Shown piece by piece: positions 1 to 22,470 of a DNA stretch of 64,000 nucleotides (positions are counted from its first letter, which is position 1; each line of letters opens with the position of its first letter). Location: assembly GCA_963834385.1 (NCBI GenBank), contig CAWIBO010000002.1, positions 1,184,001 through 1,248,000 of the forward strand, written 5' to 3'. The translations under genes were made by a program, and so were the position numbers. The notes under the pieces are model-generated. The model saw only the letters and a list, made by a program, of their open reading frames with translations. It searched no databases and was not told the origin of the DNA. This DNA is from an uncultured Verrucomicrobiae bacterium (lineage in GTDB: Bacteria; Verrucomicrobiota; Verrucomicrobiia; Chthoniobacterales; UBA10450).

Positions 1-428
1 CCGAGATCGAGGCGCGCGGCCTCCTCGTCGAGACCGAGCTGCGCTCGGACCTCCCGTTGCTCCAGGTCGATCGCGACCAGATGAAGCAGGCTTTCTATAA
101 CGTGATCAAGAACAGTTTCGAGGCCATGAAACGGGGCGGGCTGCTGCGCGTTCGGACGGATATGGACGAGAAACATGTCCTGGTCAGTTTTATCGATAAC
201 GGAAGCGGGATGTCCGCCGAGTCGCTCAGCCGCGTTTTTGAGCCTTACTACACAACCAAGGTGAGCGGGACCGGTCTCGGCCTGCTAATCGTCCGGCGAA
301 TCGTGCGCGAACATGGCGGTGAACTCGCCATCGAGAGTTCGGAGGGCCAGGGTTTCACTCTCACCCTGCGCCTCCCCATGGCCGAACAGCGGGTCCGGAT
401 GCTCGAGGCCGGAAGTAGAACGAATTAG
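1..428 (+). CDS. Sensor histidine kinase, C-terminal HATPase_c part (5'-truncated by window edge)
   Basis: N box (QAFYNVIKNSFEAM), G1 (DNGSGM), F box (FEPYYTTK), G2 (GTGLGL); stop TAG lies inside the first repeat module. Confidence 0.9.
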   Translation, partial: EIEARGLLVETELRSDLPLLQVDRDQMKQAFYNVIKNSFEAMKRGGLLRVRTDMDEKHVLVSFIDNGSGMSAESLSRVFEPYYTTKVSGTGLGLLIVRRIVREHGGELAIESSEGQGFTLTLRLPMAEQRVRMLEAGSRTN

Positions 429-1230
429 GAAACCAGGGGAAGACGAGGATGGAGGGTGGAGGGTAGAGGATGGTCTCCGTCCTACTCGTAATCATAATCG
501 TGCTCGTAATCGCTCCCCCGCTTTCCCAAAAAAAGCTGAAACGCTGAAACGCTGACAAGCTGAAATAAGGAGAAGACGAATTAGGAATCCAGGAGTTGAG
601 ACGAGGATGGAGAATGGAAGATGGAGGATAGAAACTGCTTCCAACGATTCACCACTAACGATTCACGATTCACGCCCCATCAAATCCCCTCCTGCTCATG
701 CTCTTAATCTTGATCTTGCTCCTCTTAGGAAACCAGGAAGACAGGAAGGGACGAGAAGAACCGAGGATCGAAGGTAGAGGATAGAGGATCGCCTCCATCT
801 CGACCTCCGACGCCCGACGCCCGACCACCCGCTCCGCCCGGCGTTTTCCCCCGGTAGGGCGAGACTCCGTCGAGCCTGGGAGAAGGCTTCGCTCCGGAGG
901 GGAAGACAGGATTAACAGGAGGGACAGGATTTAAGGCAAAGGCGTGACCCGTCTTTGATGGCGGCGCTGCATTTCACATGCTGGCAGCGCGTGCTCACAG
1001 GCTCGACGGAGTCTCGCCCCACCGAGGAACCCGGCCCCGCTCCCCAAACTCCTGCTCCTGCTCTTGATCTTGCTCCTGATCCTCTGAAACCCCGATAACC
1101 AATAACCAATAACCAATAACCGTTCAGGAACTGAACCCCGAACCCCGATAACCGGTCATGCCTCCTTTTCCTGTTTTCCTCCTTTCCTGATTAGAATTCT
1201 TTTCCTGGTTTCCTGGCTTCCAAATTGGTC
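420..1230. repeat. Modular mosaic repeat array A
   Basis: Modules GAATTAGGAAACCAGG (422, 578, variant 725), GAGGATGGAG.., TACTCGTAATCATAATCGTGCTCGTAATCG (483-512), GCTGAAAC x3, ATTCACG, CCGACGC, ACAGGATT, AATAACC x4; reverse-complement TTCCTG.. tracts at 1168-1226. Confidence 0.9.
853..1023. repeat. REP-like inverted pair (REPIN-like)
   Basis: GGTAGGGCGAGACTCCGTCGAGCCTG (853-878) and CAGGCTCGACGGAGTCTCGCCCCACC (998-1023): 26-bp inverted repeat with 1 mismatch; GTAG followed by an imperfect palindrome. Confidence 0.75.
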
Positions 1231-1284
1231 CCTCTTCCGCCCCCCGCATGACATCGGCAATGGTCTGCGCGACGTTAAAAACCC

Positions 1285-3396
1285 ATGAGAACCGTCATCC
1301 TTCTTCTGCTGCTCGCTCTTTCTGCTTCAGCCCAGGATTCCTCGCCCGCCGCCACCGCCGCGGCGGACAGCCGGCAACCCTTCACCTTTGCCGCCATGAT
1401 GAAACTGAAGCGCGTTGGTGCGCCCAACCCTTCGCCCGACGGCAAATGGGTGGTCTTCGACGCGGTCGATGTGGATCTTGCGGCCAACACCAGGATTTCC
1501 CGGCTCTGGATCGTGCCCGCGAGCGGCGGGGAAGCGCGCCGGCTGAACCCCGCCACCGACAACCACGAGGAGCGGCCGCGCTTCGCGCCGGACGGAAAAC
1601 ATCTGATCTGGACGTCAAAGGCCACCGATCCGTCGCAGATCTGGATGGCGCCCTTTGACCCGGCCAAGGGTCTCCTGGCGGCGGCCCCGCATCAGGTCAC
1701 CGGCCTTTCCACCGGCGCGGATGGCGGCGTCTGGACGGGTGACGGCAAAAACATTCTTTTTGTTTCCAACGTTTATCCCGACTGCAAGGACGACGCCTGC
1801 AACCGGCAGCGGGACGAGGAGCTGAAGCAGGGCAAAGTTTCCGCCAAGATTTTCACCCGGCTGCTTTACCGGCATTGGGCTTCCTACACCGAGTTCAAGC
1901 GGAGCCATCTTTTTGTCGTGAGCGCTCTCTCCCGGGCCGGGGCCAGGGAATCAATTCCCGCGCGCGACCTCACCCCGGGCGACCACGACGTGCCGCCCTT
2001 TAACCTCGGCGGCCAGGACATGTACGCCTCCTCTCCGGACGGTCAGGAGGTCGCCTACACCAGCAATACCGACAAGGTGGAGGCCACCAGCACCAATAAC
2101 GATGTCTTCATCATCCCGCTCTCGGGGGGCAGCCCGAAGAAGATTTCGACCAGCCCGGGCAACGACAACACGCCCCTCTATTCGCCGGACGGAAAATGGA
2201 TTGCCTGGCGGTCCATGGCGCGGGCCGGCTACGAGGCCGATCGGCAGACCCTGGTGGCGTACGAACGGGCCGGAGGCCGGCTGCGCGACCTGACAGCGAC
2301 GCTGGATCGCTCCGCCGGCAGCTTCACCTGGGCGCTGGAGAACGCGAAACCGGTCCTCGCTTTTGTGGCGGAACAACGGGGATACGCCCCTCTCTATGTC
2401 GTGGGCCTGGAGGGCGCGAAACCGCGCCAGGTGGGCGATGCGAAACTGCACCTCGACGATCTCGTCTTTGCGCAGGACCACCTTTATGCCACCCGCATGT
2501 CCGTCGCGCAGCCGAACGAGATCGTCCGGCTTACCCTTTCCGCCGACCCGGCGATCTCCGCGGTCACGCACATGAACGACGCGCTCCTCTCGGAGATCAG
2601 CATGCAACCGCTCGAGTCGTTCACCTTCCAGGGCGCGAACAACGACGAGGTGGAGGGTTTCCTGGTCCGCCCGCCCGGGTTCGATCCCAAACAGAAATAT
2701 CCCGTCAAGTTCCTCATCCATGGCGGACCGCAGGGAGCGTGGGGTGATTCCTGGTCCTACCGATGGAACCCGCAGCTTTTTGCCGCGACCGGCAATTATG
2801 CCGTGATCATGATCAACTTCCATGGGTCGACCGGCTACGGCCAGGCCTTTACCGACGCGATCCAGGGCGAGTGGGGCGGCAAACCGTATGAGGACCTCAT
2901 GAAAGGCCTCGATCATGCGCTGGAGAAATATCCCTTCCTCGATGGGAAACGCGTGGCGGCGCTCGGGGCCAGTTACGGCGGATACATGGTCAACTGGATC
3001 CTCGGGCAGACCGACCGTTTCCGGTGCGTTGTCTCCCACGATGGCGTCTTCAACACCGAGGCCGCCTACGGCACCACCGAGGAACTCTGGTTCGTGGAGT
3101 GGGAATTCAAAGGCCCGCCGTGGGAACAGCGTGAGCTCTACCGGAAGTGGTCGCCCCACCTCCACGCCGAAAAATTCAAAACGCCGACCCTCGTCGTCCA
3201 CGGGCAGCTCGATTATCGGCTCGACGTTTCCGAGGGGTTCCAGCTCTTCACCACCCTGCAACGTCTGGGTGTGCCCTCGAAAATGCTCTATTTCCCCGAC
3301 GAAGGCCATTGGGTGCTGAAACCGCAAAACTCCCAGCTCTGGTATCAGACCGTGAACGATTGGGTCGACCAGTGGTGTAAAAGTAGCCGGGAATAG
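1285..3396 (+). CDS. Secreted S9 family peptidase (prolyl oligopeptidase/dipeptidyl peptidase-like) with PD40-type propeller
   Basis: Signal peptide; SPDG repeats; HGGP, GASYGG nucleophile, GQLDYR and DEGHW triad motifs. Confidence 0.92.
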   Translation: MRTVILLLLLALSASAQDSSPAATAAADSRQPFTFAAMMKLKRVGAPNPSPDGKWVVFDAVDVDLAANTRISRLWIVPASGGEARRLNPATDNHEERPRFAPDGKHLIWTSKATDPSQIWMAPFDPAKGLLAAAPHQVTGLSTGADGGVWTGDGKNILFVSNVYPDCKDDACNRQRDEELKQGKVSAKIFTRLLYRHWASYTEFKRSHLFVVSALSRAGARESIPARDLTPGDHDVPPFNLGGQDMYASSPDGQEVAYTSNTDKVEATSTNNDVFIIPLSGGSPKKISTSPGNDNTPLYSPDGKWIAWRSMARAGYEADRQTLVAYERAGGRLRDLTATLDRSAGSFTWALENAKPVLAFVAEQRGYAPLYVVGLEGAKPRQVGDAKLHLDDLVFAQDHLYATRMSVAQPNEIVRLTLSADPAISAVTHMNDALLSEISMQPLESFTFQGANNDEVEGFLVRPPGFDPKQKYPVKFLIHGGPQGAWGDSWSYRWNPQLFAATGNYAVIMINFHGSTGYGQAFTDAIQGEWGGKPYEDLMKGLDHALEKYPFLDGKRVAALGASYGGYMVNWILGQTDRFRCVVSHDGVFNTEAAYGTTEELWFVEWEFKGPPWEQRELYRKWSPHLHAEKFKTPTLVVHGQLDYRLDVSEGFQLFTTLQRLGVPSKMLYFPDEGHWVLKPQNSQLWYQTVNDWVDQWCKSSRE

Positions 3397-3434
3397 CGTT
3401 TGAGGGATTGTCCTGTTGCGACAAAATTGCACAG

Positions 3435-4898
3435 GTGCCCCAAAACGACCCAGCCGGCCTCCAGCCGACCGTTCTGATCGTCGATGACGAGAAGCCGACG
3501 CGGGACGGTTTGCGCCGGCTGCTGGAGGACCAGTACGACACCTACATCGCGGAGGACATCCGCGGCGCCATGGACGTGCTTGAGCGCGAGTCGATCGATC
3601 TCGTCCTGACGGATCTTCGCCTGGCCGGCGACGACGGGATGGACCTGGTGGAGAAGGCGCTGAAAAGATCGCACCCGCCCATTGTCGTCATGATGACGGC
3701 CTACGGCTCGGTCGACACCGCGGTGGAGGCGATGAAACGGGGTGTCTACGACTTTGTGACCAAGCCGCTGAACCTGGACAAGGTGGAAATGCTGATCGCC
3801 CGGGCCTTGAACAGCCGCAAGATCGAGCAGGAGAACCGGAGCCTGCGCCAGCAGGTCAACGAGCGGTTTGGCCTCGAGAACATCGTCGGCGAATCCGCCC
3901 CCCTGCGCGAAGTCCTCGACACCATCCGGCAGGTGGCCCCCTCCTCGGCCAACGTCCTGATCGAGGGCGAAAGCGGCACGGGCAAGGAACTGGCGGCGCA
4001 CGCCATCCATAACCTGAGCCGGCGGAACAAGGCAAAATTCGTCACGGTGCATTGCGCCGCCCTTTCACCCACGCTCCTGGAGAGCGAGCTTTTCGGGCAC
4101 GAACGCGGCGCCTTCACCGGGGCGCACGAGCGCCGGATCGGCCGGTTCGAACAGGCCAACGGCGGCACCATTTTCCTCGATGAAATCGGCGAGATCGACG
4201 CCAGCACCCAGGTGAAGCTCCTGCGCGTGATCAGCGAGGAGCGCTCCTTTGAACGCGTGGGCGGCAGCCAGACCCTCCGGGCCGACGTCCGGCTCATCGC
4301 GGCCACGAACAAGAACCTCCAGGAACTGGTCAAGGAGGGGAAGTTCCGGGACGACCTCTATTTCCGCCTCAATGTCGTCCATCTCACCATGCCGCCGTTG
4401 CGCGATCGCCGGGAAGATATTCCGCTTCTCGTGCGCGGCTTTTTGCGGCACTTCTGTAAGGCGAATGACAAGCCGCTGCTCGAAATCGCCCCGGAGGCCA
4501 TGAACGTCCTCCTCAGCTACGATTGGCCGGGCAACGTGCGCGAGCTGCGGACCGCCGTCGAACACGGCGTGGTCATGGCCACGGGCAAACAGATTCAATT
4601 GCGCGAACTGCCCATGAACGTCCGCCAGACGGCCGTGGCCAGCCTTCCGGCGGGCATCACCCCGGCCCGCGCTTTCGGCGAAAAGGCCAGCCCGCTCGAT
4701 CTCCACGAGACCGAGCGCCGCCTCATCATGCAGGCGCTCGCCGCCAGCGAAGGCAACGTCACCGCCGCGGCCAAAAAACTGGGCATCAGCCGCCGCACCC
4801 TGCACCGGAAGATCAACGAAATGAACGCGGAGAAACAAAAGGCGGCGGGCGGGAGTCCCGGCGCCGGGGACGAGGAGCACGATGGCCGGGCCAGCTGA
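3435..4898 (+). CDS. Sigma-54-dependent NtrC-family response regulator (REC-AAA+-Fis HTH)
   Basis: LIVDDE receiver, GESGTGKE Walker A, GAFTGA, WPGNVREL, LGISRRTL HTH; start uncertain (GTG 3435 or TTG 3408). Confidence 0.93.
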   Translation: MPQNDPAGLQPTVLIVDDEKPTRDGLRRLLEDQYDTYIAEDIRGAMDVLERESIDLVLTDLRLAGDDGMDLVEKALKRSHPPIVVMMTAYGSVDTAVEAMKRGVYDFVTKPLNLDKVEMLIARALNSRKIEQENRSLRQQVNERFGLENIVGESAPLREVLDTIRQVAPSSANVLIEGESGTGKELAAHAIHNLSRRNKAKFVTVHCAALSPTLLESELFGHERGAFTGAHERRIGRFEQANGGTIFLDEIGEIDASTQVKLLRVISEERSFERVGGSQTLRADVRLIAATNKNLQELVKEGKFRDDLYFRLNVVHLTMPPLRDRREDIPLLVRGFLRHFCKANDKPLLEIAPEAMNVLLSYDWPGNVRELRTAVEHGVVMATGKQIQLRELPMNVRQTAVASLPAGITPARAFGEKASPLDLHETERRLIMQALAASEGNVTAAAKKLGISRRTLHRKINEMNAEKQKAAGGSPGAGDEEHDGRAS

Positions 4899-6612
4899 CG
4901 CCATCCAGCGCGCGGTGCACGCGCTCGAATCCGGCGGCCTGGCCGTCTGGGTCCGGCGCGCCCTCATCGTGGTCGCGCTGGTCGGCCTCGCCCTCTTTTA
5001 CCAGATACGGGAGTTCCGCGGTCTGGCCACTTCGCACGCGATGGACCAGGCCCAGATCGGGCGGCAGCTCGCCAGCGGACACGGCTTCCGCACCCAGTTC
5101 ATCCGGCCGCGCGCCATCGGGCAATTGCAGGCCCGGGGCAAGGACGTCGCCACCAACATCTGGTACGACACCTACAACGCGCCCCTGCCGCCCCTCCTGA
5201 ATGCCGTGGTTCTCTTTCCTTTCAAGGCGCGCTGGCAAATGACGCCCGCCGACGTCATCTATGCCGGCGACAAGGTCATCGCCTTCACCGGCATCCTTCT
5301 TTTCTTCGCCTCGCTCGTCCTGCTCTACTTCATCGCGCGGCGGCTCTTTGATCAGCGCCTCGCGCTCATGGCCTGCGGGATCATGGTCCTGTGCGACCTC
5401 CTTTGGCAGTACTCGATCTCCGGTCTGCCGCAGATGCTCATGCTCTTCCTTTTCCACGGCACGATTTATCTCGTGGTCCGCGCCGTCCAGGCCCAGGACG
5501 TGGGCGGGCGTGTCGGCTTCTGGCTCGCGGGCGTGGGGGCCGGTTTCGGTCTCCTGGCGCTCACCCATGCCCTCACCATCTGGATCTTCGTGGCCGCGCT
5601 CCTCTTTTTCGCGATTCACTTCCGCCCGCGCGGCTGGGCCGCTCTCTTGGTCCTCGCTGTTTTCCTGGCGATCTATTCGCCCTGGCTCCTCCGGAACTAT
5701 GTGGTCTCAGGCCATCCCGGCGGCGTCGCCATCTACTCGGTCCTGGCCGATATGAAATATTCCGAGGCGGGCTGGATGCGCCGGATCGGCCTCGATACCA
5801 CCGGCGTCGGTCCGGCGGCCCTGCGGACGAAGATTGTCAGCAATGTCGTCGGCCAGGCCGGCCAGCTCGTGCGGCATCTCGGCTGGAACGTGGTCGCTCT
5901 CGCCTTCTTTTTCAGCCTCATGCACCGCTTTAAACGGCCGGAAACCGCCATGCTCAAATGGATGCTGCTCGCTCTCTGGCTCGGCGCTTTTGCCGGGATG
6001 TCTCTCTATGGTCTGCCCGAGGAGCAGGGCTTCGCCGCGAACCAGCTCCATCTGCTTTTTCTGCCGCTCATGACCTGCTTCGGGCTCGCCTTTCTTCTCG
6101 TGCAATGGAACCGCACGGAGGTCGACCTGCGCGTGGCGCGGGTTGGTTTCATCGTCGGCCTTTTCCTCCTCTGCTCGTTGCCGCTCCTGTTCAACATGAT
6201 CATGCCGCGAAAGGCGCAGATCCGCTGGCCCCCTTACGTCCCGCCTTACATCGCCGTCCTCAACTCCTGGATGGGTCCGGCCGAGATCACCGCCTCCGAC
6301 ATGCCCTGGGCCATCGCCTGGTATGCCGATCGGCGCGCCCTTTGGGTCCCCGAAAACGTCCGCGTCATGACCGAGCTGAATGACTGGGGCCGCCTCGGCG
6401 GACCGATCAACGGCCTTTATCTCACGCCGATCAGCGGCAGCCAGAATGTCCTCACGGATATTCTCAAGGGGGAATACCGCAACTGGGCCACCGTCATCCT
6501 GCGCAGCGTCGATCTCCAGACGTTCCCCCTGAAATGGGCCACCCTGCTCGGGCTCGAGAACGAATGCGTTTTCTTCAGCAACGAAGACCGCCAGAAACTT
6601 CCGGCACGGTGA
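4882..6612 (+). CDS. Multi-pass membrane protein, GT-C (ArnT/PMT-like) glycosyltransferase-like
   Basis: Many TM segments; DQAQIGR..G periplasmic loop, YNAPLPP motif, PWLLRNY motif; overlaps both neighbours. Confidence 0.65.
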   Translation: MAGPADAIQRAVHALESGGLAVWVRRALIVVALVGLALFYQIREFRGLATSHAMDQAQIGRQLASGHGFRTQFIRPRAIGQLQARGKDVATNIWYDTYNAPLPPLLNAVVLFPFKARWQMTPADVIYAGDKVIAFTGILLFFASLVLLYFIARRLFDQRLALMACGIMVLCDLLWQYSISGLPQMLMLFLFHGTIYLVVRAVQAQDVGGRVGFWLAGVGAGFGLLALTHALTIWIFVAALLFFAIHFRPRGWAALLVLAVFLAIYSPWLLRNYVVSGHPGGVAIYSVLADMKYSEAGWMRRIGLDTTGVGPAALRTKIVSNVVGQAGQLVRHLGWNVVALAFFFSLMHRFKRPETAMLKWMLLALWLGAFAGMSLYGLPEEQGFAANQLHLLFLPLMTCFGLAFLLVQWNRTEVDLRVARVGFIVGLFLLCSLPLLFNMIMPRKAQIRWPPYVPPYIAVLNSWMGPAEITASDMPWAIAWYADRRALWVPENVRVMTELNDWGRLGGPINGLYLTPISGSQNVLTDILKGEYRNWATVILRSVDLQTFPLKWATLLGLENECVFFSNEDRQKLPAR

Positions 6613-8003: not shown

Positions 8004-8034
8004 GCGGCTCGTTTTTCCCAATGATTTTTAACAG

Positions 8035-8697
8035 ATGACTCTTTCCCGCATCCTTGAAGCGCTGCTTTTCAGCGCGCAAAAACCGCTCACCACCCGTGAA
8101 CTCCTTGACGCCGTCAAGGGAGAGGGGGAGACGGACGAACTGGTCCCGAACGAGTTTGCGCGGACGCGTGAGGCCGAGGTGGCGGCGGCGCTCGAGGAGC
8201 TGAAGGTCGAATACATCGGGCAGCAGCGCGCCTTTCAACTGGCGGAACAGGCCGATGGCTGGCAGCTCGTGACCGATCCCGCATACGGCGAATGGATCCG
8301 CCGCCTTTTCCCGGCGCCGAAACCCGCCCGCCTGAGCGCGCCCGCCCTCGAGACACTCGCCATCATCGCCTATCGACAGCCGATCACGCGCGCCGATGTC
8401 GAGGCCGTGCGCGGCGTTGCCATCGACGGCGTTTTGCAGACGCTTTTGGAACGCGGTCTGGTCAGGATCGGCGGCCGGGCCGAAGTCCCGGGCCGTCCGT
8501 TGCTCTACGAGACCACCGGTTTTTTCCTCGAGCACTTCGGCCTGCGCAACCTGGACGAACTCCCAAACGCCGAGGAGCTCCGCACCCGTTACCTGCCCAA
8601 AGCCCCGCCGCCAAAGACGCCCGCGCCCGCCGGGGAGGAGCTTAACGAAGATGAATCAGGAAAGCAGGAAGGGCCGAGGATGGAGAATGGAGAATAG
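8035..8697 (+). CDS. scpB: SMC-ScpAB complex subunit ScpB
   Basis: LEALLF, LSAPALETLAIIAYRQPITRADVEAVRGV, PGRPLLYETT..FLEHFGL. Confidence 0.95.
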   Translation: MTLSRILEALLFSAQKPLTTRELLDAVKGEGETDELVPNEFARTREAEVAAALEELKVEYIGQQRAFQLAEQADGWQLVTDPAYGEWIRRLFPAPKPARLSAPALETLAIIAYRQPITRADVEAVRGVAIDGVLQTLLERGLVRIGGRAEVPGRPLLYETTGFFLEHFGLRNLDELPNAEELRTRYLPKAPPPKTPAPAGEELNEDESGKQEGPRMENGE

Positions 8698-8977
8698 AGG
8701 ATCGCCCCCCTCCTACTCCTACTCGTAATCATAATCGTGCTCCTAATCGTCCCCGGCTTTCCCGAAAACGCTGAAACACTGACAAGCTCAAAAGCTGAAA
8801 TAGGGAGAAGACGAATTAGGAAACCAGGAAGGCAGGAAGGGGAAGAAGCCGTGATCGGTGATCCGTGATCTGAACCCCGAACCCTGAACTCCGAACCCTG
8901 ATAACGAATAACCGCGTTCGTTCCACTCCGACCATTCACGATTCACCACTCACCATTCACGTCCTCCCCGCCCCCCC
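8650..8977. repeat. Modular mosaic repeat array B
   Basis: Same modules as array A; about 8705-8964 is a near-direct repeat of about 10293-10523. Confidence 0.9.
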
Positions 8978-10108: not shown

Positions 10109-10174
10109 GAGAGGACTGGAGGCAAGAGGGAATCCGCGATCCCGTCAAGCCGATTGCCGTTTTCTGAAAAGCGG

Positions 10175-10590
10175 AGAACAGGAGGGAAACGAATTAGGAA
10201 ACCAGGAAAGCAGGAAGGGAATGGCGAACGGAATGCGGTCTTACCGCCATTCACGATTCACAACTCACCATTCACGTTCCCTCGACTCCTGCTCCCCCTC
10301 CTACTCGTGATCTTAATCGTGCTCGTAATCGCTCCCCTGCTTTCGCGAAAAAGCTGAAACAGGGAGAAGACGAATTAGGAAACCAGGAAGGCAGGAAGGG
10401 GAAGAAGCCGTGATCGGTGCTCCGTGATCTGAACCCCGAACCCTGATAACCAATAACGAATAGCGAATACCGCGTTCGTTCCAATCCCACCATCACGATT
10501 CACAACTCACCATTCACGTTCCCTCCGAACCCGAACCCTGAACCCTGAACCCGAACCCCGCCCCACCGCTCACCGCTCACCGCTCACCGA
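10175..10590. repeat. Modular mosaic repeat array C
   Basis: Same modules; internal exact 33-bp repeat TCACGATTCACAACTCACCATTCACGTTCCCTC (10251-10283, 10493-10525); ends in TCACCGC heptamers. Confidence 0.9.
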
Positions 10591-12163
10591 TCACCGCGCC
10601 GTAAACGCTCCATTCCCTTCCTCGAGATAAACCCGGCCGGCCACCTTGGTTACTCGCAGATACTGCCGCCAGGTTCCGCTCTCGAACCGACGCGTTCTTT
10701 CCCTCGTCTCGGTCTCGGCTGGCGGCGCCTTGCCCCCTTCGCGCAGGGCCTCGTGCAGGACCCGGCCATCCATCGCGGCTGGCGGCTCGATTCCGAGCAG
10801 GTGCAAGATCGTCGGGGCGAGATCGGCATTCCCGCTCGGCGTGGCGCTGTCGAGTCCGCGCGCGAAATCCGGCCCGGCCGCGACCAGCACATTGCGCACA
10901 TCGAAACGGGAGAGGGAGGCGTGCGTTCCCTTCCCGACGCCCCGGGCGGCATCAGCCACCAGTTCCCCTTGCACGCCGTGCCGGTTGGCGCCTGCCGCCC
11001 AGCGCATCGAGACGATCACGTCCGGCCCTTCCGCCGTGGCCAGGCCGGCGGCGGCCAGCGGAAAGGTTCCCTCCATCTCTTCACGGGTGAGAATGACGCC
11101 GGCAAAATCGGATTGCTGCAGCCAACTGACCAGGCGCGCGATTGTCGCCCGGTCGCGCCCGGTCACGTAAAAGAGAGAGGAACCGCCGTTGCCCACGATC
11201 ATGACCTGGCCCGGCACCGGCTTCTCCGGCAGCGCGTCCGGCGCGTCGAACCCGGCCGCCCGGAGCAGTTTCGGAACGTTCACCGCGCGCGTGATCGTGG
11301 AAAAACCGTGGTCGGAGACCACCATGATGTTGGTTTTCTCCAGTAGCTTCTTCTCCCGGAGAACGTCGCGGACCAGGGCAAGATTGGCGTCGGACTGCGC
11401 CACGGCCGCCAGGCTCGCGGGCGAGCCCGGCGCTTCCTCGTGCGCGGTCAGGTCGGGTTCGCTCAGCCAGAGAAGCGAAAAATCGGGCAGCCCGTCGCGC
11501 CAGAGCACCTCGAGTCAGCGCTCGCGCGGTGAATCGGTTCCGCGCTTCGTTCGTGTCCGCCATGCCGACAAGGAACGGACCGAGAAGTTTTTCGGCCAAT
11601 TCGCGCGCGGCGGCGGGCATGGGCGCGCCCGCGAACACTGTCACCCGGATGCCATTCGGCTTGGTCCAGCGCGCATGCGCCCATTCAGCCCGGCGATCGA
11701 ACAGGAAGGCGACGGACTTGCTTCCGGCCACGGCCGCAGTTCGTCCTTTTGCCTGCAGGATCTCCGGCAGGGTCGGGGCGGCCAGGTATTTGCCCCCGCT
11801 CAATTCGTCCCCCCGCCGGACTGTTTCCTCGTCCCCGGTATCAATCGGGCGCGTTGCCTCCAGGCGCGGACGGAACTCACGGTTGGCAATGAGGCCGCTA
11901 CGCCCCGGTTGCATTCCGGTGACGAGGGCCGCGCCGTTTACCTGCGTGGCCGTCGGATAAACCGCGTGATGACGCTGGAATCGGACGCCATCACGCGTCA
12001 TCTGCCAGAGCGTCGGCGTCAGCCGCGCGGTCACCGCTTCCGGCCGCAGACCGTCCATGACCACGAGCACGAAATGGCGTTCTGCCGGGAGCGTTTCGCC
12101 GGCCGGCGCCATTCCCATGCTCAGGGCGAAAAGCACCAGGGTCGGGAGGAAACGCGCGCGCAT
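10591..12163 (-). CDS. Alkaline phosphatase superfamily nucleotide pyrophosphatase/phosphodiesterase (frameshift near 11510)
   Basis: N-half VMDGLRP, YPTATQVN..TG in ORF 11081-12163; C-half EPDLTAH, VVSDHG, GTHASL, NADLAPT in ORF 10591-11508. Confidence 0.85.
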
Positions 12164-12288
12164 GCCTGGGAAGAGTGACGCGGAAATCGCGGGTGGCGCA
12201 AGCCTGCCCCCGGGGCTTCCGATGGTTTGCGCTGGTCACCGCGCCCCGCGTGGGCTTGCATGCAGGGCGGCGCGCGGCGCCGCGCACC

Positions 12289-13808: not shown

Positions 13809-13815
13809 CCGCGGC

Positions 13816-16003
13816 CTAGTCTCCGAATCCGACCCCGCGCGTGATCCGCTGCAGGATGCCGCCTTTATCCGGCTTGGCCGCGGTCACGGCCGGCCAGCAA
13901 TCGATGATCTCGAGGGCGAGGAAACGGAACAAAGTCAGGCGGGCAAACTTCAGGTCGAGCCGCAAATTCTTGGCGATCTGCTGCACGGAACGGGCCCCGT
14001 TAAACTGCGAGGCGAACTGGGCCTCAGCCACGGTCAGGCGCAGGTGTTGGACCCGGTCGAATCCGTCCCGCGTATAGGCCGGGATGCAGCCGGGATCGAT
14101 GGCCGGAGCGGTGCTGAGTTCCGGGTACTGGACAAAGCGGAGCACGTTCAGGCACCACTGGTCGATCTCACCTTCGCCGGGCTGGTCGCTCGCGTAATCC
14201 GGCAGCCGGTCGAGCAATTCAAAGACGAACCGGACCCGTTTCGTCGTCCAGAGCTGGGCAAAAAGTTTCTGGCCGTGATGCTGCACCAGTTGCTGGGCCG
14301 GGTCGCGCAGGATCAGGTCTTCCCGGGCCAGGGTGATGAACAGGGGCGCGCCGGTCTCCCTCTGCGCCTGCTTGGCCCACTCGGTCGCGGTCCCCGTCCA
14401 CGTTCACCAGGGTGATCGGCGCTTCCGGGCAGTAAATCTCCGGGTCGCGTGTCGTGACCAGGACCACCTTGCCCTGCTGCGCCAGGAGTTCGACCGGGCT
14501 CTTGTTCCAAAAACAGCGGAGCACGCCGGTCAGCTTCTCGCGCCCGATCGTCTGCAGCGCCCAGTGCAGCGAAAAGAAGGTGGTGTCGCCGCAAAAATAG
14601 GTCGCCTCGCTCGCTCCGCGGGTCGAGCCGGCCTCGTAGCTGACCGGCATCGGCGCTGTCTCCACCTGGTCGGTGATGTTCATGGCACTCTCGTCCGCCC
14701 CAAAAATGTTGCCCGTGGGCGCGTCGGCCATTGGCTCCGGCTCCCACATCGGGGGGGCGCTCTCCGGCTGCGGTTGAAAAGATCCTTCCTCCGCCGCCAC
14801 CGGGCTTTCCGCCTGGGGTTCCGGTGCCGGTTCCATCGCCGGTGTTTCCGGTTCCGCCGGGATCGGCTCGGGTTCGTTGGCAGGGAGATGCTTGGACACG
14901 GTGCTCAGGAGAAGGTCGGAGGTGAACGGCTTGCTCAGCGAACCGATTACGTTGCGGTTCACGAACTCGTCGGGTTTAAGGTCCGACCCAAATCCCGACA
15001 TGTAAAGGACCGGCACTTCCGCCGTGCGCCCATCCTCCAGCAGACGCTGGCTGACCTCGTTCCCCTTCATGTCCGGCAGCACGTAATCGAGCAGGATCAG
15101 GTCGGGCTTCTCCCGCGCGGCCGCGCGCAACCCTTCCTCCGCCGTCCCCGCCGAGAACACCTGGTAGCGCGCGTCGGTCAGGATTTCGCTCACGAAACTC
15201 AGCAGCATCATGCTGTCGTCCACCACCAGCACCTTGGGCGAGCCCGAGCTGGCCGGCCGCCTCGCTTTGGCCCGCGTGGCCGCGGCATCGGCGGTCTCGT
15301 CAATGTTTCGCACCGCTTCCATGAGCAGGACCTGCCAGTCGAGATTGATCGTCCGCGGGGGTTGCTCGCCCGAAAGCTCGGAGATCTTGCCCCCTTTCCA
15401 GTTCACGATCTCGTTAAAGGCGGCCAGCCCTTCCTTGCCGGGGGCGGTCGCGTGTCGCACCTGCCCGTTCTCGAAATAGACCCGCGCCTTTTCACCCTTT
15501 GGCCCGGTGAACTCGAGCGCCGAACTCGATCCCCCGATGCACTTGAGCTGGATGATGTCGGCGATGTGCAGGTCGCTCAGGGTCCCGGCGAATTTTTGTT
15601 CCTCGCCCTCGGCGGAGGCGAGCAGCGCCCCGGCCAGGTCCACGAAATCGCCATGCGGGAACGGCTTCTCCAGGTAATGAATCGCCCCCAGCCCGGAGAC
15701 CTGTTCCCGTTGCAGCTCGAAATGGCGCGCGGTCAGGATAATGGCGCGGGCGTTCGGGTGGCTCGTCCGCAGATCGTAAAGGAATTCCTGGCCGAGGTCG
15801 TAGGTGGCGTCGAGATCAAGCACGAACAGGTTCGGCTTCAAGCCCACCACCATGCTTTGCGCTTCCTCGAGGCTGTGCGCGACATGCACCTGCGCGCCCG
15901 CGGCCGCTTCCGCCACCGCCGAGGTGATTTCATTCCCAAGTTGCTCGTCAGGGGCCAGGACAAGCACCTGTCCGGCGTTGGGCGATGGATCGTTTTCGTT
16001 CAC
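13816..16003 (-). CDS. Multi-domain response regulator: REC-PATAN(DUF4388)-REC-Pro/Glu linker-PATAN-like (frameshift near 14390)
   Basis: Two receiver domains (LFVLD..KP; VVDD..LILLD..KP), FAGTLSDLHIADIIQL PATAN start, second domain LQTIGREKLTGVL; C-terminus continues in ORF 13816-14286. Confidence 0.75.
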
Positions 16004-16132
16004 GGCTGGCGGGTCTCGGCGCGGCCGTTCTTCGCCCGCGCTCCCCTGTAGAAATGCCCGCTTCCGGCGAAATGGAAAGGATTTTCTCAGGAAGCGTTCG
16101 GCTTCCGAACGCGCCTCCGCGTCGCCCCCCGC

Positions 16133-16252
16133 TTAACGGGTATGCACGCCGGCCGAGACCGCTTCCCCGCTGTCGGTCCGCACCGTGGTGGTGCATCCGA
16201 TGAAGGAAGCCAGGACGAGAACTGCACCGAGCGTGAGAAGAATGGTTTTCAT
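16133..16252 (-). CDS. Small putative lipoprotein (39 aa)
   Basis: MKTILLTLGAVLVLASFIG-C: basic N-region, hydrophobic core, lipobox-like Cys; AAAAGG just upstream. Confidence 0.65.
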   Translation of the reverse strand: MKTILLTLGAVLVLASFIGCTTTVRTDSGEAVSAGVHTR

Positions 16253-16328
16253 ATGCCTTTTAATCGCACGCGGCCCCTCCGCCGATCGTCTCCCGTTTTC
16301 CTGGGCCGGTCTTTCGGCCCGAACCGCC

Positions 16329-17730
16329 CTACCCCGGCCCGCCAAAAATCGACGACAACGCCCTTCGGCTCACTTTCCCCCGCTCGTTCGCCGGAATTCG
16401 GTCGACGAAGAAGATCCGTTTCGGCACCTGCCACCCGCTTAACCTCTCGCGGCAATGCGCCAGCAACGCCGCTTCATCCTGGTTCTTCGCCACCACGCAG
16501 GCCGCCACCTCTTCGTTGCGCACCGCCGAGGCCCGCCCGAACGCCACCGCCTCGCGCACCCCGGGAAACCGCAGCAACTCCGCCTCCACCTCCGCCGGGT
16601 TCACCTTCTTTCCCGCCACGTTGATCACGTCGGACACCCGCCCCACGATCCGGTAGGCCGTCTCCCCGTTTTTCCAGCAGGTCGCCCGGGACAAACACGC
16701 CTTCCCCGAGGTGCGCCGGGTCGGGCTCCGGATAGTAGCCCTCCGCCACGGCCGCGCTGCGCACCCGGATTTGCGACGTCGTTGCTCCTCCGTCGGCCAG
16801 CTCGATGGTCACGCCTTCCAGGGGCGTCCCAACGAATCCGTCCGCCGGATTCGTTCCGTCGCGGTCATAACAGATCCCGCCGCACTCCGACGACCCGTAG
16901 AAGGAATGAATCGGCTGCCCAAACCGCTCAAGAAAAGCGTGCGCCAGTCTCGCCGTCAGGGGTGCACCGGCCGACAAACAAAGGCGCAGGTGCGGCAGCG
17001 GCGGGACGTTCTCCATCTCGCAGAACGGCTGGAAGAAAACCGGCATGCCGGGAAAAACGGTCGCGCCGCTCGCCGCGAGGTCGTCCAGGACCGCGCGCGG
17101 CATCCGATCCCGGCTCAGGACCAGCGGCACCCCGCGAAACAGCAGCGGGGTGAGCAGGTTCGAGAACCCGTAGGAATGCGAGACCGGGATCACTCCGAAG
17201 TTCCGGTCCTGCGCCGTGATCCCCATGGTCGCGCAGATCTGGTCGCAATCCGCCAGGAGCTGGCGGCCGCGAAACCGAATCGCGCGCGGGGCCGCCGTCG
17301 TCCCGGAGGTCAGTTTCAGGAGCGCCGGCGCTTCTCCCTCCCACGGCGGCGGGGCGTTGCCGCCGGGGCAGGGGGCAAACTGCAGATCGTCCGGGCCGGT
17401 GACAATCAGCGCGACGCCACAGGCGGCGCAGGCCCGGTCCCGTTCCGCCGGGGAAACGGTCTGCTCGAGCGGCAGCACCACCAAACCCTTTCGCCAGCAG
17501 GCGAGCAGGAGCGCCGGCCAGGCCGGATGGTTCCCGGTCTGGATCGCCACCACGCTCCCGGGCGGCCCCGCCTTTTCCAGGCGCGAACCGAGCGCGCGCG
17601 CTTCCTCTTCCACCGCGGAAAAGGTGCGCGCAACAGCCCCGCGCCGGTCGAACACGGCCGGGCTATCTCCCTGGCGCCCAAGCGTTTCCGCCCAGCGCTC
17701 CAGGCACGGGCCGGCGGCGGACCCGGTCAC
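16329..17730 (-). CDS. AMP-dependent acyl-CoA synthetase/ligase (frameshift near 16660)
   Basis: [30 protein letters not shown] in first frame; [20 protein letters not shown] and N..GK in second frame. Confidence 0.85.
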
Positions 17731-17777
17731 TTGCGGGAAGGCGTTTCCGCGCCTATAGTCGCAATCCGTTTCCGACC

Positions 17778-18008
17778 ATGAAAGCCGATATCCATCCCGA
17801 TTATCACGTGACCGACATTTCCTGCGCTTGCGGCGCGGTTTATCATACCCGCTCGACGCGGCGTGACATTAAAATCGGCATTTGCGCGGCCTGTCATCCG
17901 TTTTTTACCGGCGAACAGAAATTCGTCGACACCGCCGGTCGCGTGGAAAAATTCGCGCGCCGTTACGGCAGCACCAAGGCCTCGCGCGTCGGGGTCAAGA
18001 AATCCTAG
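17778..18008 (+). CDS. rpmE: 50S ribosomal protein L31 (zinc-binding type)
   Basis: [32 protein letters not shown]. Confidence 0.97.
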
Positions 18009-18093
18009 CTTCTTCAGCATGAACACGGCGGTCTTCGGGCCGCCGTTTTGCTTGTACCCGACCCGCTCTTGCCCGACACCTCTCTTTTCCTAA

Positions 18094-19173
18094 ATGGACC
18101 TTGCCCCGCTTATTGACCGTAAACGCAGTCGCTTCGACGAACTCGAACGCGAGATCGCCGATCCCGCGCTTTTCGAGAACCGGAAACGCGCCAGCGAGAT
18201 CATGCGCGAGCACTCCGGGATCAAGCAGCTTCTCGCCCGCTGGGGCGAACTCGAGACCTCCCGGCGGCAGCTCGAGGACAACCGCGAACTCTCCACCGCA
18301 GCCGACGCCGACCTGGCCCTGATGGCGCAGGAGGAAATTCCGGCGCTCGAGAAACGCGTGGCCGACCTCGAGCGCGCGGTCCTCATCGATCTGCTGCCGT
18401 CCGATGAATCGGAGGAGCGCGATGCCATTGTCGAGATTCGCGCCGGCACCGGCGGGAGCGAAGCGGCCATTTTCGCCGCCGACCTTTACCGGATGTACAA
18501 CCGGTTCGCCGAAACGCGCGGGCTCAAGATCGAGGACCTCGATTCCAGTCCCTCGGAGTTGGGCGGCCTGAAGGAATCGATCTTCCGTGTCTCGGGCGAG
18601 GCGGTTTTCCGGCTGCTCCGTTACGAGAGCGGGGTTCACCGCGTCCAGCGCGTCCCGGCGACCGAGGCCCAGGGCCGGATTCACACTTCCACCGCCACCG
18701 TGGCCGTTCTGCCCGAGGCCGAGGAAGTCGATCTCGAGCTGAAACCGGACGAACTTCGGATCGAGGTTTGCCGCGCCGGCGGCCCGGGCGGGCAGGGGGT
18801 CAACACCACCGATTCCGCCGTGCAGATTCTGCATATCCCGACCGGGCGGATCGTCCGTTGCCAGGACGGCCGGAGCCAGCAGAAGAACAAGGAGAAAGCG
18901 CTCGCCATCATGCGCGCCCGGCTGCTCGAGGACAAACGTCGCGAGGAAGAGGCGAAATATTCCGCGACCCGCAAAAACCAGATCGGCTCCGGCGGTCGCG
19001 AGGAAAAGATCCGCACCTACAACTTCCCGCAGAACCGCATCACCGATCACCGCATCGGCCTGACGCTCTATAATCTGGATCGCGTCATGGAAGGCAGCCT
19101 CGACGAATTGATCGCCTCCCTGCAAAGCGCCGACATCGAGGAACGCCTGAAAAACTCCGCCCTCTCTGTCTAA
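18094..19173 (+). CDS. prfA: Peptide chain release factor 1
   Basis: EIRAGTGG, ESGVHRVQRVPATE (PxT motif), GGQ, RTYNFPQNR. Confidence 0.97.
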   Translation: MDLAPLIDRKRSRFDELEREIADPALFENRKRASEIMREHSGIKQLLARWGELETSRRQLEDNRELSTAADADLALMAQEEIPALEKRVADLERAVLIDLLPSDESEERDAIVEIRAGTGGSEAAIFAADLYRMYNRFAETRGLKIEDLDSSPSELGGLKESIFRVSGEAVFRLLRYESGVHRVQRVPATEAQGRIHTSTATVAVLPEAEEVDLELKPDELRIEVCRAGGPGGQGVNTTDSAVQILHIPTGRIVRCQDGRSQQKNKEKALAIMRARLLEDKRREEEAKYSATRKNQIGSGGREEKIRTYNFPQNRITDHRIGLTLYNLDRVMEGSLDELIASLQSADIEERLKNSALSV

Positions 19174-19189
19174 CGCGCCGCAGCGCGTT

Positions 19190-19690
19190 GGAAGATGGAA
19201 GATGGAAGATGAAGGGAGGGACGCGCTTCCGCGTGTCCGATTCCAAAAACCGAAACAAGGAGAAAAACAAATTAGGAAACCAGGTTGAGACGAGGATGGA
19301 GAATAGCGAATGGAGGATAGCTTCCCCCTCCTACGCAGGAATCCTAATCGTGCTCCTAATCGCTCTGTTGACCTCCCGAAAAGCTGAAATAAGGAGAGAA
19401 TGAATTAGGAACCAAGGAAAGCAGGATGGGACGAGGATCGAGGGTGGAAAATGGAGGATCGCTCCCCTTAACACTTAAGACTTAACACTTAACACACGCC
19501 TCCCCAGTTACTGATTCCTCTTTTCCTGATTAAAGACTTCCCGGTTTCCTGGCTTCCAAATTAGTCCATTCGAGAAATCGAGATTCGAAAATCCCTTTCC
19601 TGCTTTCCTCCTTTCCTAATTAGATTCCTTTTCCTGGTTTCCTGGTTGTCCCAATCGAAAATCGAGATTCAAAAATCGAAAATTCCCCTC
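19190..19690. repeat. Modular mosaic repeat array D
   Basis: GGAAGAT x3, GGAG-hairpin, AATTAGGAA modules (19270, 19403), TAATCGTGCTCCTAATCG, TTAACAC, inverse TTCCTG tracts, AAATCGA heptamers. Confidence 0.9.
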
Positions 19691-19692
19691 CT

Positions 19693-20520
19693 TCCCTCCT
19701 CTCGGTCCTGCAATCGACCACCGCCTGGTTCGCGAAACGCGGCGTGGAAAGCCCGCGCCTTAACGCGGAACACCTCCTGGCCCACGTCCTCGGCCGGAAA
19801 CGGATCGAGCTTTATCTCGAGTTCGAGCGGCCCCTCGCCGAGACCGAGCTGGCCCCGCTGCGCGATCTGGTCCGGCGCCGCGGCCAGGGCGAACCGCTCC
19901 AGCATCTCCTCGGCACGGTCGAGTTCTGCGGCATGACTTTTCTCTGCGACAAACGCGCCCTCGTTCCCCGCCCGGAAACCGAGGAACTCGTCACCCTCCT
20001 CCAATCGAAAATCGAAAATCGAACCTCGAAAATCCTCGACGTCGGCACCGGCAGCGGCGTGATCGCCCTCGCGCTCGCCGCCCGTTTTCCCGAGGCCACG
20101 GTGCACGCGCTTGATCTCAGCCACGACGCGCTTGCTCTCGCCCGCGAAAACGCCGCCCGGCTCGGGTTGACGGACCGCGTCCAGTTCGAGCAGGGCGATC
20201 TTCTCCCGGCCGGGACCGATCGTTACGACGTCATCGTCGCCAACCTTCCCTATGTGCCCGCGAATGACCCAGTCAGCCGCGAAGTGGCCCATGATCCGGC
20301 CACCGCGCTCTATGGCGGAGCCACCGGCACCGAAGTGATCCAGCGCCTGATCGAATCAGCCCCGCCGCGCCTTGCCCCGGGCGGTCTGCTCGCGCTCGAG
20401 ATCGGCCAGGGCCAGGCGGCCGCGCTCGAGGAGTTGCTGCGCGCCGCGGGTTACCACGATATCTCGACCGTGAAGGATTTTGGGGGTATCCTCCGCTTCC
20501 TGTTTTCCCGGTATGGATAA
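19693..20520 (+). CDS. prmC: Release factor glutamine methyltransferase (HemK); start codon not evident
   Basis: SLLSVLQSTTAWFAKRGVESPRL, GEPLQHLLG, LVPRPETEELV, DVGTGSG, NLPY; follows prfA. First in-frame canonical start is GTG 19744. Confidence 0.92.
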   Translation, partial: SLLSVLQSTTAWFAKRGVESPRLNAEHLLAHVLGRKRIELYLEFERPLAETELAPLRDLVRRRGQGEPLQHLLGTVEFCGMTFLCDKRALVPRPETEELVTLLQSKIENRTSKILDVGTGSGVIALALAARFPEATVHALDLSHDALALARENAARLGLTDRVQFEQGDLLPAGTDRYDVIVANLPYVPANDPVSREVAHDPATALYGGATGTEVIQRLIESAPPRLAPGGLLALEIGQGQAAALEELLRAAGYHDISTVKDFGGILRFLFSRYG

Positions 20521-21775
20521 GATCCTTGTGCATGGCGGCCATGAGCTGTCCGGTTCCATCAAGATCAGCGGCTCGAAGAACTCGGCCCTGCCGATCCTGG
20601 CCGCCACTCTGCTCACGCGCGAGCCCTGCACCCTTCATCGGGTGCCCGACCTGAGCGATACCAATTACATGCTCCAGATCCTGGCCCATCTCGGGGCGCA
20701 GGTGGAACGCGCCAGCGGCACCGTCACCGTCACCGCGGAAAAGATCGAATCGATCGCCCCCTACGATGTGGTCCGCCGGATGCGCGCCTCCGTCTGCGTG
20801 CTGGGACCGCTCCTGGGCCGTTGCCGCGAGGCCACCGTCTCGCTCCCGGGCGGCTGCGTCATTGGCGATCGCCCGATCGATCTGCATTTGAAGGGGTTCG
20901 AGGCGCTCGGCGCCGCCATCCGGGTCGAGGGCGGCAACGTCAAGGTTTTCGCCCCGAAACTTCAGGGCGCGGTCATCAACCTGCGCGGCAAGTTCGGGCC
21001 CACCGTGCTCGGGACCGACAATGTCATGATGGCCGCCGTCCTGGCCGAGGGCACCACCGTGATCGAGGGGGCCGCCCAGGAACCGGAGGTGTGCGACCTG
21101 GCCGATTTCCTGAACAAGATGGGCGCAAAGATCGAGGGGGCCGGCACCCGCCGCATGATCATCGAGGGGGTGAAGGAACTACACGGGGCGGAGCACACCG
21201 TCATTCCGGACCGGATCGAAGCGGGGACGTTCCTTGTCGCCGGCGCCATGGCGGGCAAAGGGGTCACGCTCAAGCGGGTGAACGCGAAGCATGTCGAGGC
21301 GGTCACGGCAGCGCTGACCTCGTGCGGTTACAAGATCGAGAGCAAAGGCGACAGCATGACGGTCTCGCCGAACGGCGCGGTGCAGCCGCTGGAGATTGCC
21401 ACCGAGCCGTACCCCGGGTTCCCCACCGATATGCAGGCGCAGATGTGCGCGCTTCTCTCCACCACGGACGGAATCAGTGTGGTCACCGAGAACGTTTTTC
21501 CGCAGCGCTACATGCATGTGGCGGAATTGAAGCGCATGGGCGCCAATGTGCAGCTCGAGGGAGCCACGGCCGTTATCCACGGCGTGGAGAAACTGCTCGG
21601 CGCGCCGGTGATGGCGAGTGATCTGCGAGCCTCGGCGGCGTTGGTCCTGGCCGGGCTGAAAGCGGAGGGGATCACCGAGATCGGGCGCGTTTATCACATT
21701 GACCGCGGTTACGAGCACCTGGACGAAAAGCTCGGCGAGCTTGGCGCGCATATTGAACGTGTTAAAGATAAGTGA
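20513..21775 (+). CDS. murA: UDP-N-acetylglucosamine 1-carboxyvinyltransferase
   Basis: SGSKNSALP, RMRAS, LPGGCVIGDRPIDLH, PDRIEAGT, PGFPTDMQ, DLRAS, IDRGYE. Confidence 0.97.
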   Translation: MDKILVHGGHELSGSIKISGSKNSALPILAATLLTREPCTLHRVPDLSDTNYMLQILAHLGAQVERASGTVTVTAEKIESIAPYDVVRRMRASVCVLGPLLGRCREATVSLPGGCVIGDRPIDLHLKGFEALGAAIRVEGGNVKVFAPKLQGAVINLRGKFGPTVLGTDNVMMAAVLAEGTTVIEGAAQEPEVCDLADFLNKMGAKIEGAGTRRMIIEGVKELHGAEHTVIPDRIEAGTFLVAGAMAGKGVTLKRVNAKHVEAVTAALTSCGYKIESKGDSMTVSPNGAVQPLEIATEPYPGFPTDMQAQMCALLSTTDGISVVTENVFPQRYMHVAELKRMGANVQLEGATAVIHGVEKLLGAPVMASDLRASAALVLAGLKAEGITEIGRVYHIDRGYEHLDEKLGELGAHIERVKDK

Positions 21776-22158
21776 TGGACACCACGACTCCTCCCCCCGC
21801 GCCCTCCTCGCCGCCTCCCGTGACCAGTCCCCGCACCTGGGCGGTCCTTTGTCATGCCACCGCCTTGAGCGGCGTCGTCCTGCACGTCTTCGGATTTGTC
21901 CTGGGACCGCTGGTCGTCTGGCTGGCCAAGCGCGGTGAATCCGCCGAGATCGACGCGCACGGCAAGGAATCGCTCAATTTCCAGTTGTCGATGCTGCTCT
22001 GGAGCCTGATCGCCTCGATTCTGATCGTGGTCCTGATCGGGATCCCGATTTTGATCGGCCTTTACGTGATCAACATCGTCCTCACCATCATCGCCTCGCT
22101 CAAAGCGAGCGAAGGCACTCTCTACCGCTACCCGCTCACCATCCGTTTCCTCGGGTAA
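21775..22158 (+). CDS. DUF4870-like membrane protein
   Basis: WAVLCH, GPLVVWL, HGKESLNFQ, YRYPLTIRF. Confidence 0.85.
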   Translation: MDTTTPPPAPSSPPPVTSPRTWAVLCHATALSGVVLHVFGFVLGPLVVWLAKRGESAEIDAHGKESLNFQLSMLLWSLIASILIVVLIGIPILIGLYVINIVLTIIASLKASEGTLYRYPLTIRFLG

Positions 22159-22194
22159 ACCAGCTGCCTTGGCTCGGCGGCGGTTGGTGGAAGT

Positions 22195-22470
22195 GGGCGG
22201 AAGATGGAAGACGGAGGGAGCGCTTCCGCGTGTCCGATTCCAAAAGCTGAAACGCTAAAAAGCTGACAAGCTGAAATTCGGAGAGGATGAATTAGGGAAC
22301 CCAGGAAAGACCAGGAAGGAAGATAAGGATGGCTCCCCTCTTACTCGTAATCATAATCGTGCTCGTAATCGTCCCCCTGCTTTTTTGAAACGCTGAAATG
22401 AGACGAAGGGATGATTCAGGAAACCAGGAAGGCGGGAAGGGATAGGGTGGAGATGAGCGGGAGAGCGGAA
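22195..22470. repeat. Modular mosaic repeat array E
   Basis: Starts like array D; GCTGAAA, GAATTAGG, exact 30-mer at 22342-22371 identical to 483-512. Confidence 0.9.

Follow-up and report, generated by a model that had tools for sequence, protein, structure and literature searches.

Background

Bacterial interspersed mosaic elements (BIMEs) are intergenic mosaics made of a few conserved motifs in a fixed order. This study concerns five intergenic arrays, each chaining several short repeated words, in the genome of an uncultured Verrucomicrobiae bacterium (assembly GCA_963834385.1, here G000; 2.9 Mb in five contigs, 64% GC, 89.6% complete). They lie in a stretch of 64,000 nucleotides of contig CAWIBO010000002.1 (G000:C2:1184001-1248000), which is called the window and whose positions are used throughout unless a contig is named. 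The arrays are probably stacks of gene-less arms in which the left ones come before the right ones and at least eight types of small cassette are represented, and are likely to have arisen through the repeated arrival of cassettes, the loss of their genes and the local copying of the stacks.

In the intervening sequence (IVS) of the Coxiella burnetii 23S rRNA gene, terminal inverted repeats enclose an S23p open reading frame (ORF) whose start codon is preceded by tandem GACAGAT heptamers, and the S23p protein of Xanthomonas is a homopentamer (PMC4990558). Runs of heptamers are also described as short tandemly repeated repetitive sequences (STRRs) in cyanobacteria and as GGGAATC-type repeats in Xanthomonas and Nostoc; they are intergenic, often form convergent pairs and lie near gene ends, and their origin and function are left open in that source (PMC4692102). 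The same holds for the TAACTGA heptamer repeats of Beggiatoaceae (PMC4679880). Finally, the Avd protein of diversity-generating retroelements forms a pentameric barrel similar to S23 proteins and binds RNA, as stated in the available part of that report (10.1101/2023.10.23.563531).

Results and discussion

Composition of the five arrays

A rereading of the window recovered the five arrays and their words where a preliminary description, made from the sequence alone, had placed them. Fourteen module types compose them, denoted as A (AGGAA type), B (GAGGATG), C (CTCGTR), N (CTCTTR), D (GCTGAAA), E (ATTCACG), F (AATAACC), G (GAACCCY), H (AATCGAA), I (TTAACAC), J (ACAGGATT), K (CCGACGC), L (TCACCGC) and M (CCGTGAT). 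Each array holds 5-12 different words of period 6-9 within a length of 240-800 nt:

421..1221, plus strand: array 1; left arms A, B, C, D, A, B; right arm E; left arms N, A, B; K without assignment; a pair of repetitive extragenic palindromes (REPs) around left arm J; left arm N; right arms F, G, A, A
8653..8960, plus strand: array 2; left arms A, B, C, D, A, M; right arms G, F, E
10185..10597, plus strand: array 3; A (left), E (right), C, D, A, M (all left); then right arms G, F, E, G, L
19189..19683, plus strand: array 4, between prfA and prmC; left arm B, a REP-like half site (19215-19238), left arms A, B, C, D, A, B; right arms I, A, A; two AATCGAA (H) runs
22199..22441, plus strand: array 5; left arms only, B, D, A, B, C, D, A, B

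The 30-mer reported as shared by the first and last arrays is identical at 483-512 and 22342-22371, which are its two exact copies in the genome, and its variants carry one mismatch at 8720, two at 10302 and eight at 19333. The arrays had been described as confined to the first 22.5 kb and as running in one orientation. Their positions are right, but the family is genome-wide, with 107 clusters of at least two module types; the single orientation does not hold, as the AGGAA module also occurs reversed in array 1 (1157-1221) and array 4 (19515-19647), and the actual arrangement is one of left arms and then right arms. On contig C5 most module patterns were far more frequent than expected by chance, with 8-64 matches against 0-8 in an order-4 Markov copy, the exceptions being CCGACGC (0 versus 0), TCACCGC (3 versus 5) and GAAGATG (5 versus 1).

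A structured RNA, among the possibilities raised at first, finds no backing in the folding of the five arrays, whose z values range from +0.9 to -3.4 (12-25 shuffles) and are little better than those of shuffled sequence. A look-up of sequencing runs returned two DNA holders, with a share of 0.09, and listed no RNA holder, a result that counts neither for nor against the arrays.

Array words as arms of cassettes

Eleven of the fourteen words are the terminal arms of cassettes, that is, units composed of a left arm, a gene and an inverted right arm; of the rest, one is weakly matched and two are unmatched. The link of such words to four-helix-bundle and GxxExxY genes, offered in the preliminary description, proved correct by profile searches, by the reading of flanks and by a set of extracted cassettes. 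G000 has eight four-helix-bundle loci (PF05635; the seven scanned match TIGR02436) and three GxxExxY loci (PF13366, a nuclease fold; the two scanned match TIGR04256). By eye, clear inverted word arms flank six of the former and all three of the latter. The arms read in G000 are the following:

C5:789487: D
C5:558249: M/L
C5:760259: F
C5:349580: B plus E
C2:743024: I
C2:898757: N, left side only
C3:254809: A, at a broken GxxExxY gene

No four-helix-bundle or GxxExxY gene or remnant is present in the 64 kb of the window (no match at E<=1), in agreement with the earlier remark that it shows no cognate enzyme. Across 40 family genomes, PF05635 matches occur in 37 and PF13366 matches in 33; these tallies, and some of those below over relatives or family genomes, include rows for G002, G007 or G014, on which no sequence-level claim rests.

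The cassette set was drawn from the returned loci and from 100 fetched regions (80 for PF05635, 20 for PF13366), picked down the ranked match lists, and yielded 173 distinct cassettes, mostly from relatives (120 four-helix-bundle, 53 GxxExxY). At least three 7-mers are common to the upstream and the inverted downstream flank in 95/120 and 52/53 of them, compared with 13% of random pairings, so that every word can be read in two orientations, left when upstream of the gene and right when inverted downstream of it. A dictionary of 11-mers taken from the cassette arms of other genomes only, G000 being excluded, labels the modules of the window with both cassette type and side. By these assignments A and J represent two GxxExxY lineages, and B, C/N, D, E, F, I and M/L represent four-helix-bundle lineages.

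Polarity of the arms

In the genome clusters with at least three labelled runs (n=106), the left-to-right arrangement dominates, with 69 L..R, 5 R..L, 18 L..L and 14 R..R. The fraction of pairs in which a left arm precedes a right one is 0.83, against 0.50 in permuted data (maximum 0.60 of 2000). Genome-wide, an inverted partner follows downstream for 60 of 294 left arms; since most are unpaired, the arrays are orphan stacks and not hairpins. The initial idea of a cargo-less mobile element family was therefore close, but these are the unmatched arms of many cassette types and not one element with two ends.

Module order and local copying

The order of modules is non-random, as first noticed. 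Transitions counted genome-wide are strongly directional: A to B 10 versus 1 in reverse, B to C 4 versus 0, C to D 9 versus 1 and D to A 13 versus 2. The shared grammar read into this order is not a universal rule; it is an inherited series of junctions copied within G000. The clusters holding both C and D, ten in all, come from just two neighbourhoods, one at C2 1184-1206 kb and the other at C5 82-109 kb. Moreover, the arrays align colinearly with paralogues at 75-87% identity over 150-340 nt, with substitutions and indels: array 2 is 81% identical to G000:C5:109170-109491 over 340 nt, and array 3 is 80% identical to array 2 over 261 nt. Of 78 arrays, 41 have their best paralogue no more than 30 kb away, compared with 3.7 expected. 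In 150 family genomes, scored on four candidates per genome, the composite was not found; 98 match array 2, and the matches listed are single modules of at most 92 nt. Colinear paralogues, local clustering and absence in relatives together indicate that the A-B-C-D-A order is one historical chain of junctions, copied locally in this lineage.

The same evidence bears on whether the arrays could be an assembly artefact or the product of plain polymerase slippage, which is extremely improbable. Frameshift-like breaks do occur in the assembly, from which alone the arrays are known, but the paralogues diverge by substitutions and indels, the same words recur in independently assembled genomes, and neither the dictionary match nor the left-to-right order fits such an origin. 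The original argument that slippage alone does not make a catalogue of words is upheld. A symmetry of the two neighbourhoods about the replication origin was also considered and found no support (dnaA at C2:718 kb, irregular skew).

Association between words and protein lineages

Arm words follow the lineage of the cassette protein. On the protein tree, a quick tree of 105 columns with word classes drawn by hand after the data had been seen, 27 word changes among 20 classes were counted, against 95 when shuffled. A label-free Mantel comparison of protein and arm similarity, from which rows with arms below 12 nt were dropped, gave rho values of 0.30 (n=114) and 0.39 (n=51), with permutation maxima of 0.055 and 0.105.

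Of the pairs of four-helix-bundle cassettes sharing a word, 84/175 lie at different host loci, and 62/207 pairs at the same locus have unrelated arms, which indicates that gene and arms travel, and replace each other, as units. The nuoF-nuoG gap, for example, holds a broken A-armed GxxExxY cassette in G000 and an empty C-word hairpin in L081, and the gap-pgk gap holds a four-helix-bundle gene with an N arm in G000 and with a C arm in L082 and L097. Grouping of GxxExxY cassettes by host locus was left aside, as it yielded no more than 15 groups that are probably over-merged.

Comparison with described repeat systems

As far as the available text describes it, the ORF-bearing IVS of Coxiella is similar to the cassettes of G000 in its four-helix-bundle ORF, inverted repeats and heptamers; the cassettes differ in lying between protein-coding genes, in comprising many word-specific lineages and in including GxxExxY genes. 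The arrays depart further from it. They sit between protein genes and not inside a 23S rRNA gene, with no Rfam match in positions 1-23000; they contain no PF05635 ORF, although eight exist elsewhere in the genome; and the inverted repeats of an IVS stem, present in the cassettes, are lacking in the arrays, with their largely unpaired left arms and weak folding.

With STRRs the arrays share an excess of intergenic runs of period 7, for which Tandem Repeats Finder (TRF) gave 254 rows between genes and 56 within them, on gene calls from a codon model made for this analysis. They do not consist of one word per locus. In the portions available, the STRR and TAACTGA papers treat single words and name no partner gene, whereas G000 chains about twelve words of 6-9 bases, each tied to a cassette lineage.

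BIMEs resemble the arrays in layout, being intergenic mosaics of fixed order, and array 1 contains an inverted pair absent from the preliminary list of modules:

853..876, plus strand: GTAG-type REP, left copy; no 14-mers recur more often in the genome than those it contains
1000..1023, minus strand: GTAG-type REP, inverted copy, read from the window sequence

We take these to be REPs on the strength of the REP consensus and of the PF01797 matches in the genome, two of which exceed the cut-off. PF01797 denotes a transposase of the type associated with REPs (RAYT); its presence does not imply that a RAYT moves the modules. As a side observation, the inverted REPs enclose about 120 nt including the J arm (853-1023), and the REP-J-E unit forms a second mosaic family in the genome.

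These features raise the question of whether the arrays are one non-autonomous family, of the BIME type or of the MITE type (miniature transposable elements with inverted repeats), moved whole by a transposase such as a RAYT. Blocks of up to 340 nt do recur at 81% identity, REP copies are built into arrays, with 25 transitions from REP to J genome-wide versus 1 in reverse, and PF01797 domains are at hand. Yet the arrays hold one REP pair and one half site, all other modules being periodic cassette arms and not REP palindromes, and the boundaries of the paralogues of arrays 2-5 coincide neither with REP ends nor with any fixed terminus. The uniform length and shared terminal inverted repeats by which MITEs are defined are missing as well, the five arrays having different ends and the wide range of lengths given above. 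Such an origin is very unlikely. The preliminary description had named a match to a known MITE, BIME or STRR family as evidence against its proposal; the arrays belong to none of the three. They work like IVS-type cassette debris laid out as a BIME-like mosaic.

Full-text searches of the literature, outside supplements and most subscription journals, found no description of intergenic word-arm cassettes or of their mosaics, only pieces of them, namely the Coxiella IVS heptamers and unexplained heptamers. One source, in its available part, names the cassette-protein domain only in a figure legend (PMC10910872).

Solitary arms and evidence against stacked cassettes

Arms also occur alone. An arm run lies within 400 nt downstream at 15/30 integron-integrase loci of the family, versus 0/13 scpB and 4/15 prfA loci, and these arms, placed right after stop codons, are single, partnerless and gene-less, with a cargo remnant at 1/30 loci. 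The only integron integrase of G000 (C5:81295-82257, L369) itself adjoins a paralogous array; as a mover, the integrase was set aside despite this contact and its frequent post-stop arm. A single word is likewise found inside a coding sequence of the window:

20003..20034, plus strand: one AATCGAA module, in frame in the interdomain linker of PrmC, where relatives have other heptamer words

Of 81 distinct sequences (loci L289-L368, L017-L044), 66 carry an in-frame heptamer run in this linker; the runs comprise 17 consensus words, which change 39 times on the PrmC tree, and 0/7 rows from other families have such a run. Furthermore, GTDB contains 27 places with the exact 27-mer of module C, in Acidobacteriota, Planctomycetota, Hydrogenedentota and others; at the two that lie beside a four-helix-bundle gene it is the arm.

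These observations suit a different explanation, in which the arms themselves are the mobile unit, written or copied into gene ends and tolerant linkers by a possibly RNA-templated process, with the genes as passengers or binding proteins of that process and not as the origin of the words. The 25/27 exact C-word sites without a nearby gene fit it, and the related Avd pentamer binds RNA in a retroelement, to judge from the available text (10.1101/2023.10.23.563531). The setting of Avd differs in that no reverse transcriptase (PF00078) was found in G000, 89.6% complete, and this absence speaks against RNA-templated arms and also against stacked cassettes. Nor do the 12 module patterns show a consistent strand preference relative to transcription genome-wide; many PrmC words differ by one letter, which fits slippage, and the colinear copying of long blocks points to recombination at the DNA level. 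Self-moving arms are, on balance, unlikely.

Several other results weigh against a derivation from stacked cassettes. A cassette gene lies within 1 kb at only 2/27 of the GTDB places with the C 27-mer, and with arms mostly lacking genes there, the gene could follow the words rather than the reverse. In the dictionary, G (GAACCCY) matched weakly, and H (AATCGAA) and K (CCGACGC) match no word. As for the side-order counts, Markov controls gave 6-14 clusters versus 84 real ones, so that roughly 10% may be false, and paralogous arrays are non-independent samples. Simple Russian-doll nesting was rejected, with 13 nested versus 17 crossing pairs and 80% of arms unpaired. The prfA-prmC gaps of relatives are free of cassettes and of arrays of this kind. 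Comparison gave no instance of an insertion, deletion or conversion event between close strains, the relatives searched reaching at most 83% identity in PrfA and 73% in PrmC; for the empty-site comparison, none of 30 relatives belonged to the same genus and no metagenome contig exceeded 73% identity in PrmC. The A-type GxxExxY gene of G000 is broken, no active mover was identified, the window has no cargo gene, and arms stand alone after integrase stops and in the PrmC linker. Covariation of word and protein within one family may reflect shared descent only, and it is not proof of recognition because kin share labels.

Genes around the arrays

The five gaps are bordered by genes whose functions are unrelated to one another: histidine kinase and S9 peptidase, scpB and a solute-binding channel protein, the channel protein and a phosphodiesterase, prfA and prmC, and DUF4870 and GNAT proteins. 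Those identified in the window include:

57..428, plus strand: end of the histidine kinase gene
8035..8697, plus strand: scpB
18094..19173, plus strand: prfA (release factor 1)
19702..20520, plus strand: prmC, adjoined by array 4; without an in-frame ATG, GTG or TTG where relatives start
21772..22158, plus strand: gene of the DUF4870 protein, upstream of array 5

Array modules reach into these genes. The upstream histidine kinase gene takes its stop codon from array 1, as the TAG of the first A module (426-428), and the stop codon of scpB (8695-8697) lies inside module B of array 2. In the prmC start region (19624-19744), an ATT is in frame at 19624 and an out-of-frame TTG at 19646 lies inside array 4, which may supply the prmC start, or the assembly may have a one-base error. 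The phosphodiesterase gene at 10591-12163 is split across two overlapping frames by a frameshift or an assembly error.

It could be argued that the arrays are selected regulatory or decoy elements, which in untranslated regions would offer binding platforms to titrate or recruit cassette proteins, or would determine how mRNA is processed. The exact 27-mer attests to the conservation of words across phyla, arms provide stop codons, and a regulatory role was proposed for TAACTGA repeats in the accessible part of their description (PMC4679880). On the other hand, the composite is private to G000 and absent from the same gaps in relatives, the neighbouring genes have no function in common, and arrays are commonest where they are least harmful, being borne by 30/113 convergent, 63/525 co-directional and 13/309 divergent gaps. 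Since convergent gaps are favoured and divergent ones avoided, tolerance fits better than function, and selection for a regulatory role is quite unlikely.

Proposed origin and implications

The reading of the arrays as stacked cassette arms has its direct basis in word identity, sidedness, orphan status, block paralogy and the swapping of cassettes at fixed sites. Under the proposed sequence of events, cassettes would arrive repeatedly at the same gene gap, a new cassette or arm would enter at or within an old one, and the gene would then be lost while the arms stay. Crossovers in related cargo genes or in shared arms could bring together a left stack and a right stack from different sites, and gene conversion between nearby arrays, through the shared AGGAA (A) arm, could spread the A-B-C-D-A block. 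The arrays themselves are probably for the most part tolerated debris.

The words are probably binding sites of their cognate proteins. Four-helix-bundle pentamers may sit as rings on about 4-5 repeat units, and GxxExxY nucleases would cut near their own arms and so start conversion. Recognition of words by cassette proteins is plausible because one protein of G000 matches PDB 2GSC (five chains) at 1e-14, S23p is a homopentamer, the Avd pentamer binds RNA, arms measure about 3-5 units, and a D..ExK pattern of PD-(D/E)XK-like type is kept in 52/53 GxxExxY proteins. A bolder reading, which is possible but doubtful, sees in the cassettes minimal selfish elements of a class not yet described. Each protein lineage, whether of ring-forming four-helix-bundle proteins or of GxxExxY nucleases, would read its own word of 6-9 bases, in a code of at least 20 entries, and would drive the insertion, stacking and exchange of arms. 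Such elements would be the source of the heptamer repeats that abound in many bacterial genomes, and the arrays a fossil record of successive invasions of one site.

The model of stacked arms offers a testable origin for the excess of bacterial heptamers, which has no accepted origin or function in the available parts of PMC4692102 and PMC4679880. It also explains the apparent grammar through the precedence of left arms over right arms and the local copying of blocks. Moreover, the arrays tie TIGR02436 and TIGR04256, two large families without a known substrate, to heptamer repeats, and the table of words and proteins predicts which protein should bind or cut which repeat. If recognition is true, the cassettes would provide a naturally occurring collection of small nucleic-acid binders and nucleases, each specific for a repeat. 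They would also represent a new way for repeats to spread, one by which the ends of genes and the linkers of proteins are rewritten as well.

Other cassette-related loci

In single relatives, several cassettes with different words lie within a few kb of each other (L201, at G046:C2:379634-386854, L231 and L273), a possible precursor of stacks. One four-helix-bundle domain of G000 (C2:1006162-1006443, L008) forms the end of an open frame of 578 amino acids, apparently fused to the upstream gene through repeat-derived sequence. Lastly, a pair of small genes at G000:C2:423270-423919 lies between two A-type arrays and, going by its motifs, resembles an antitoxin with a PIN-domain toxin.

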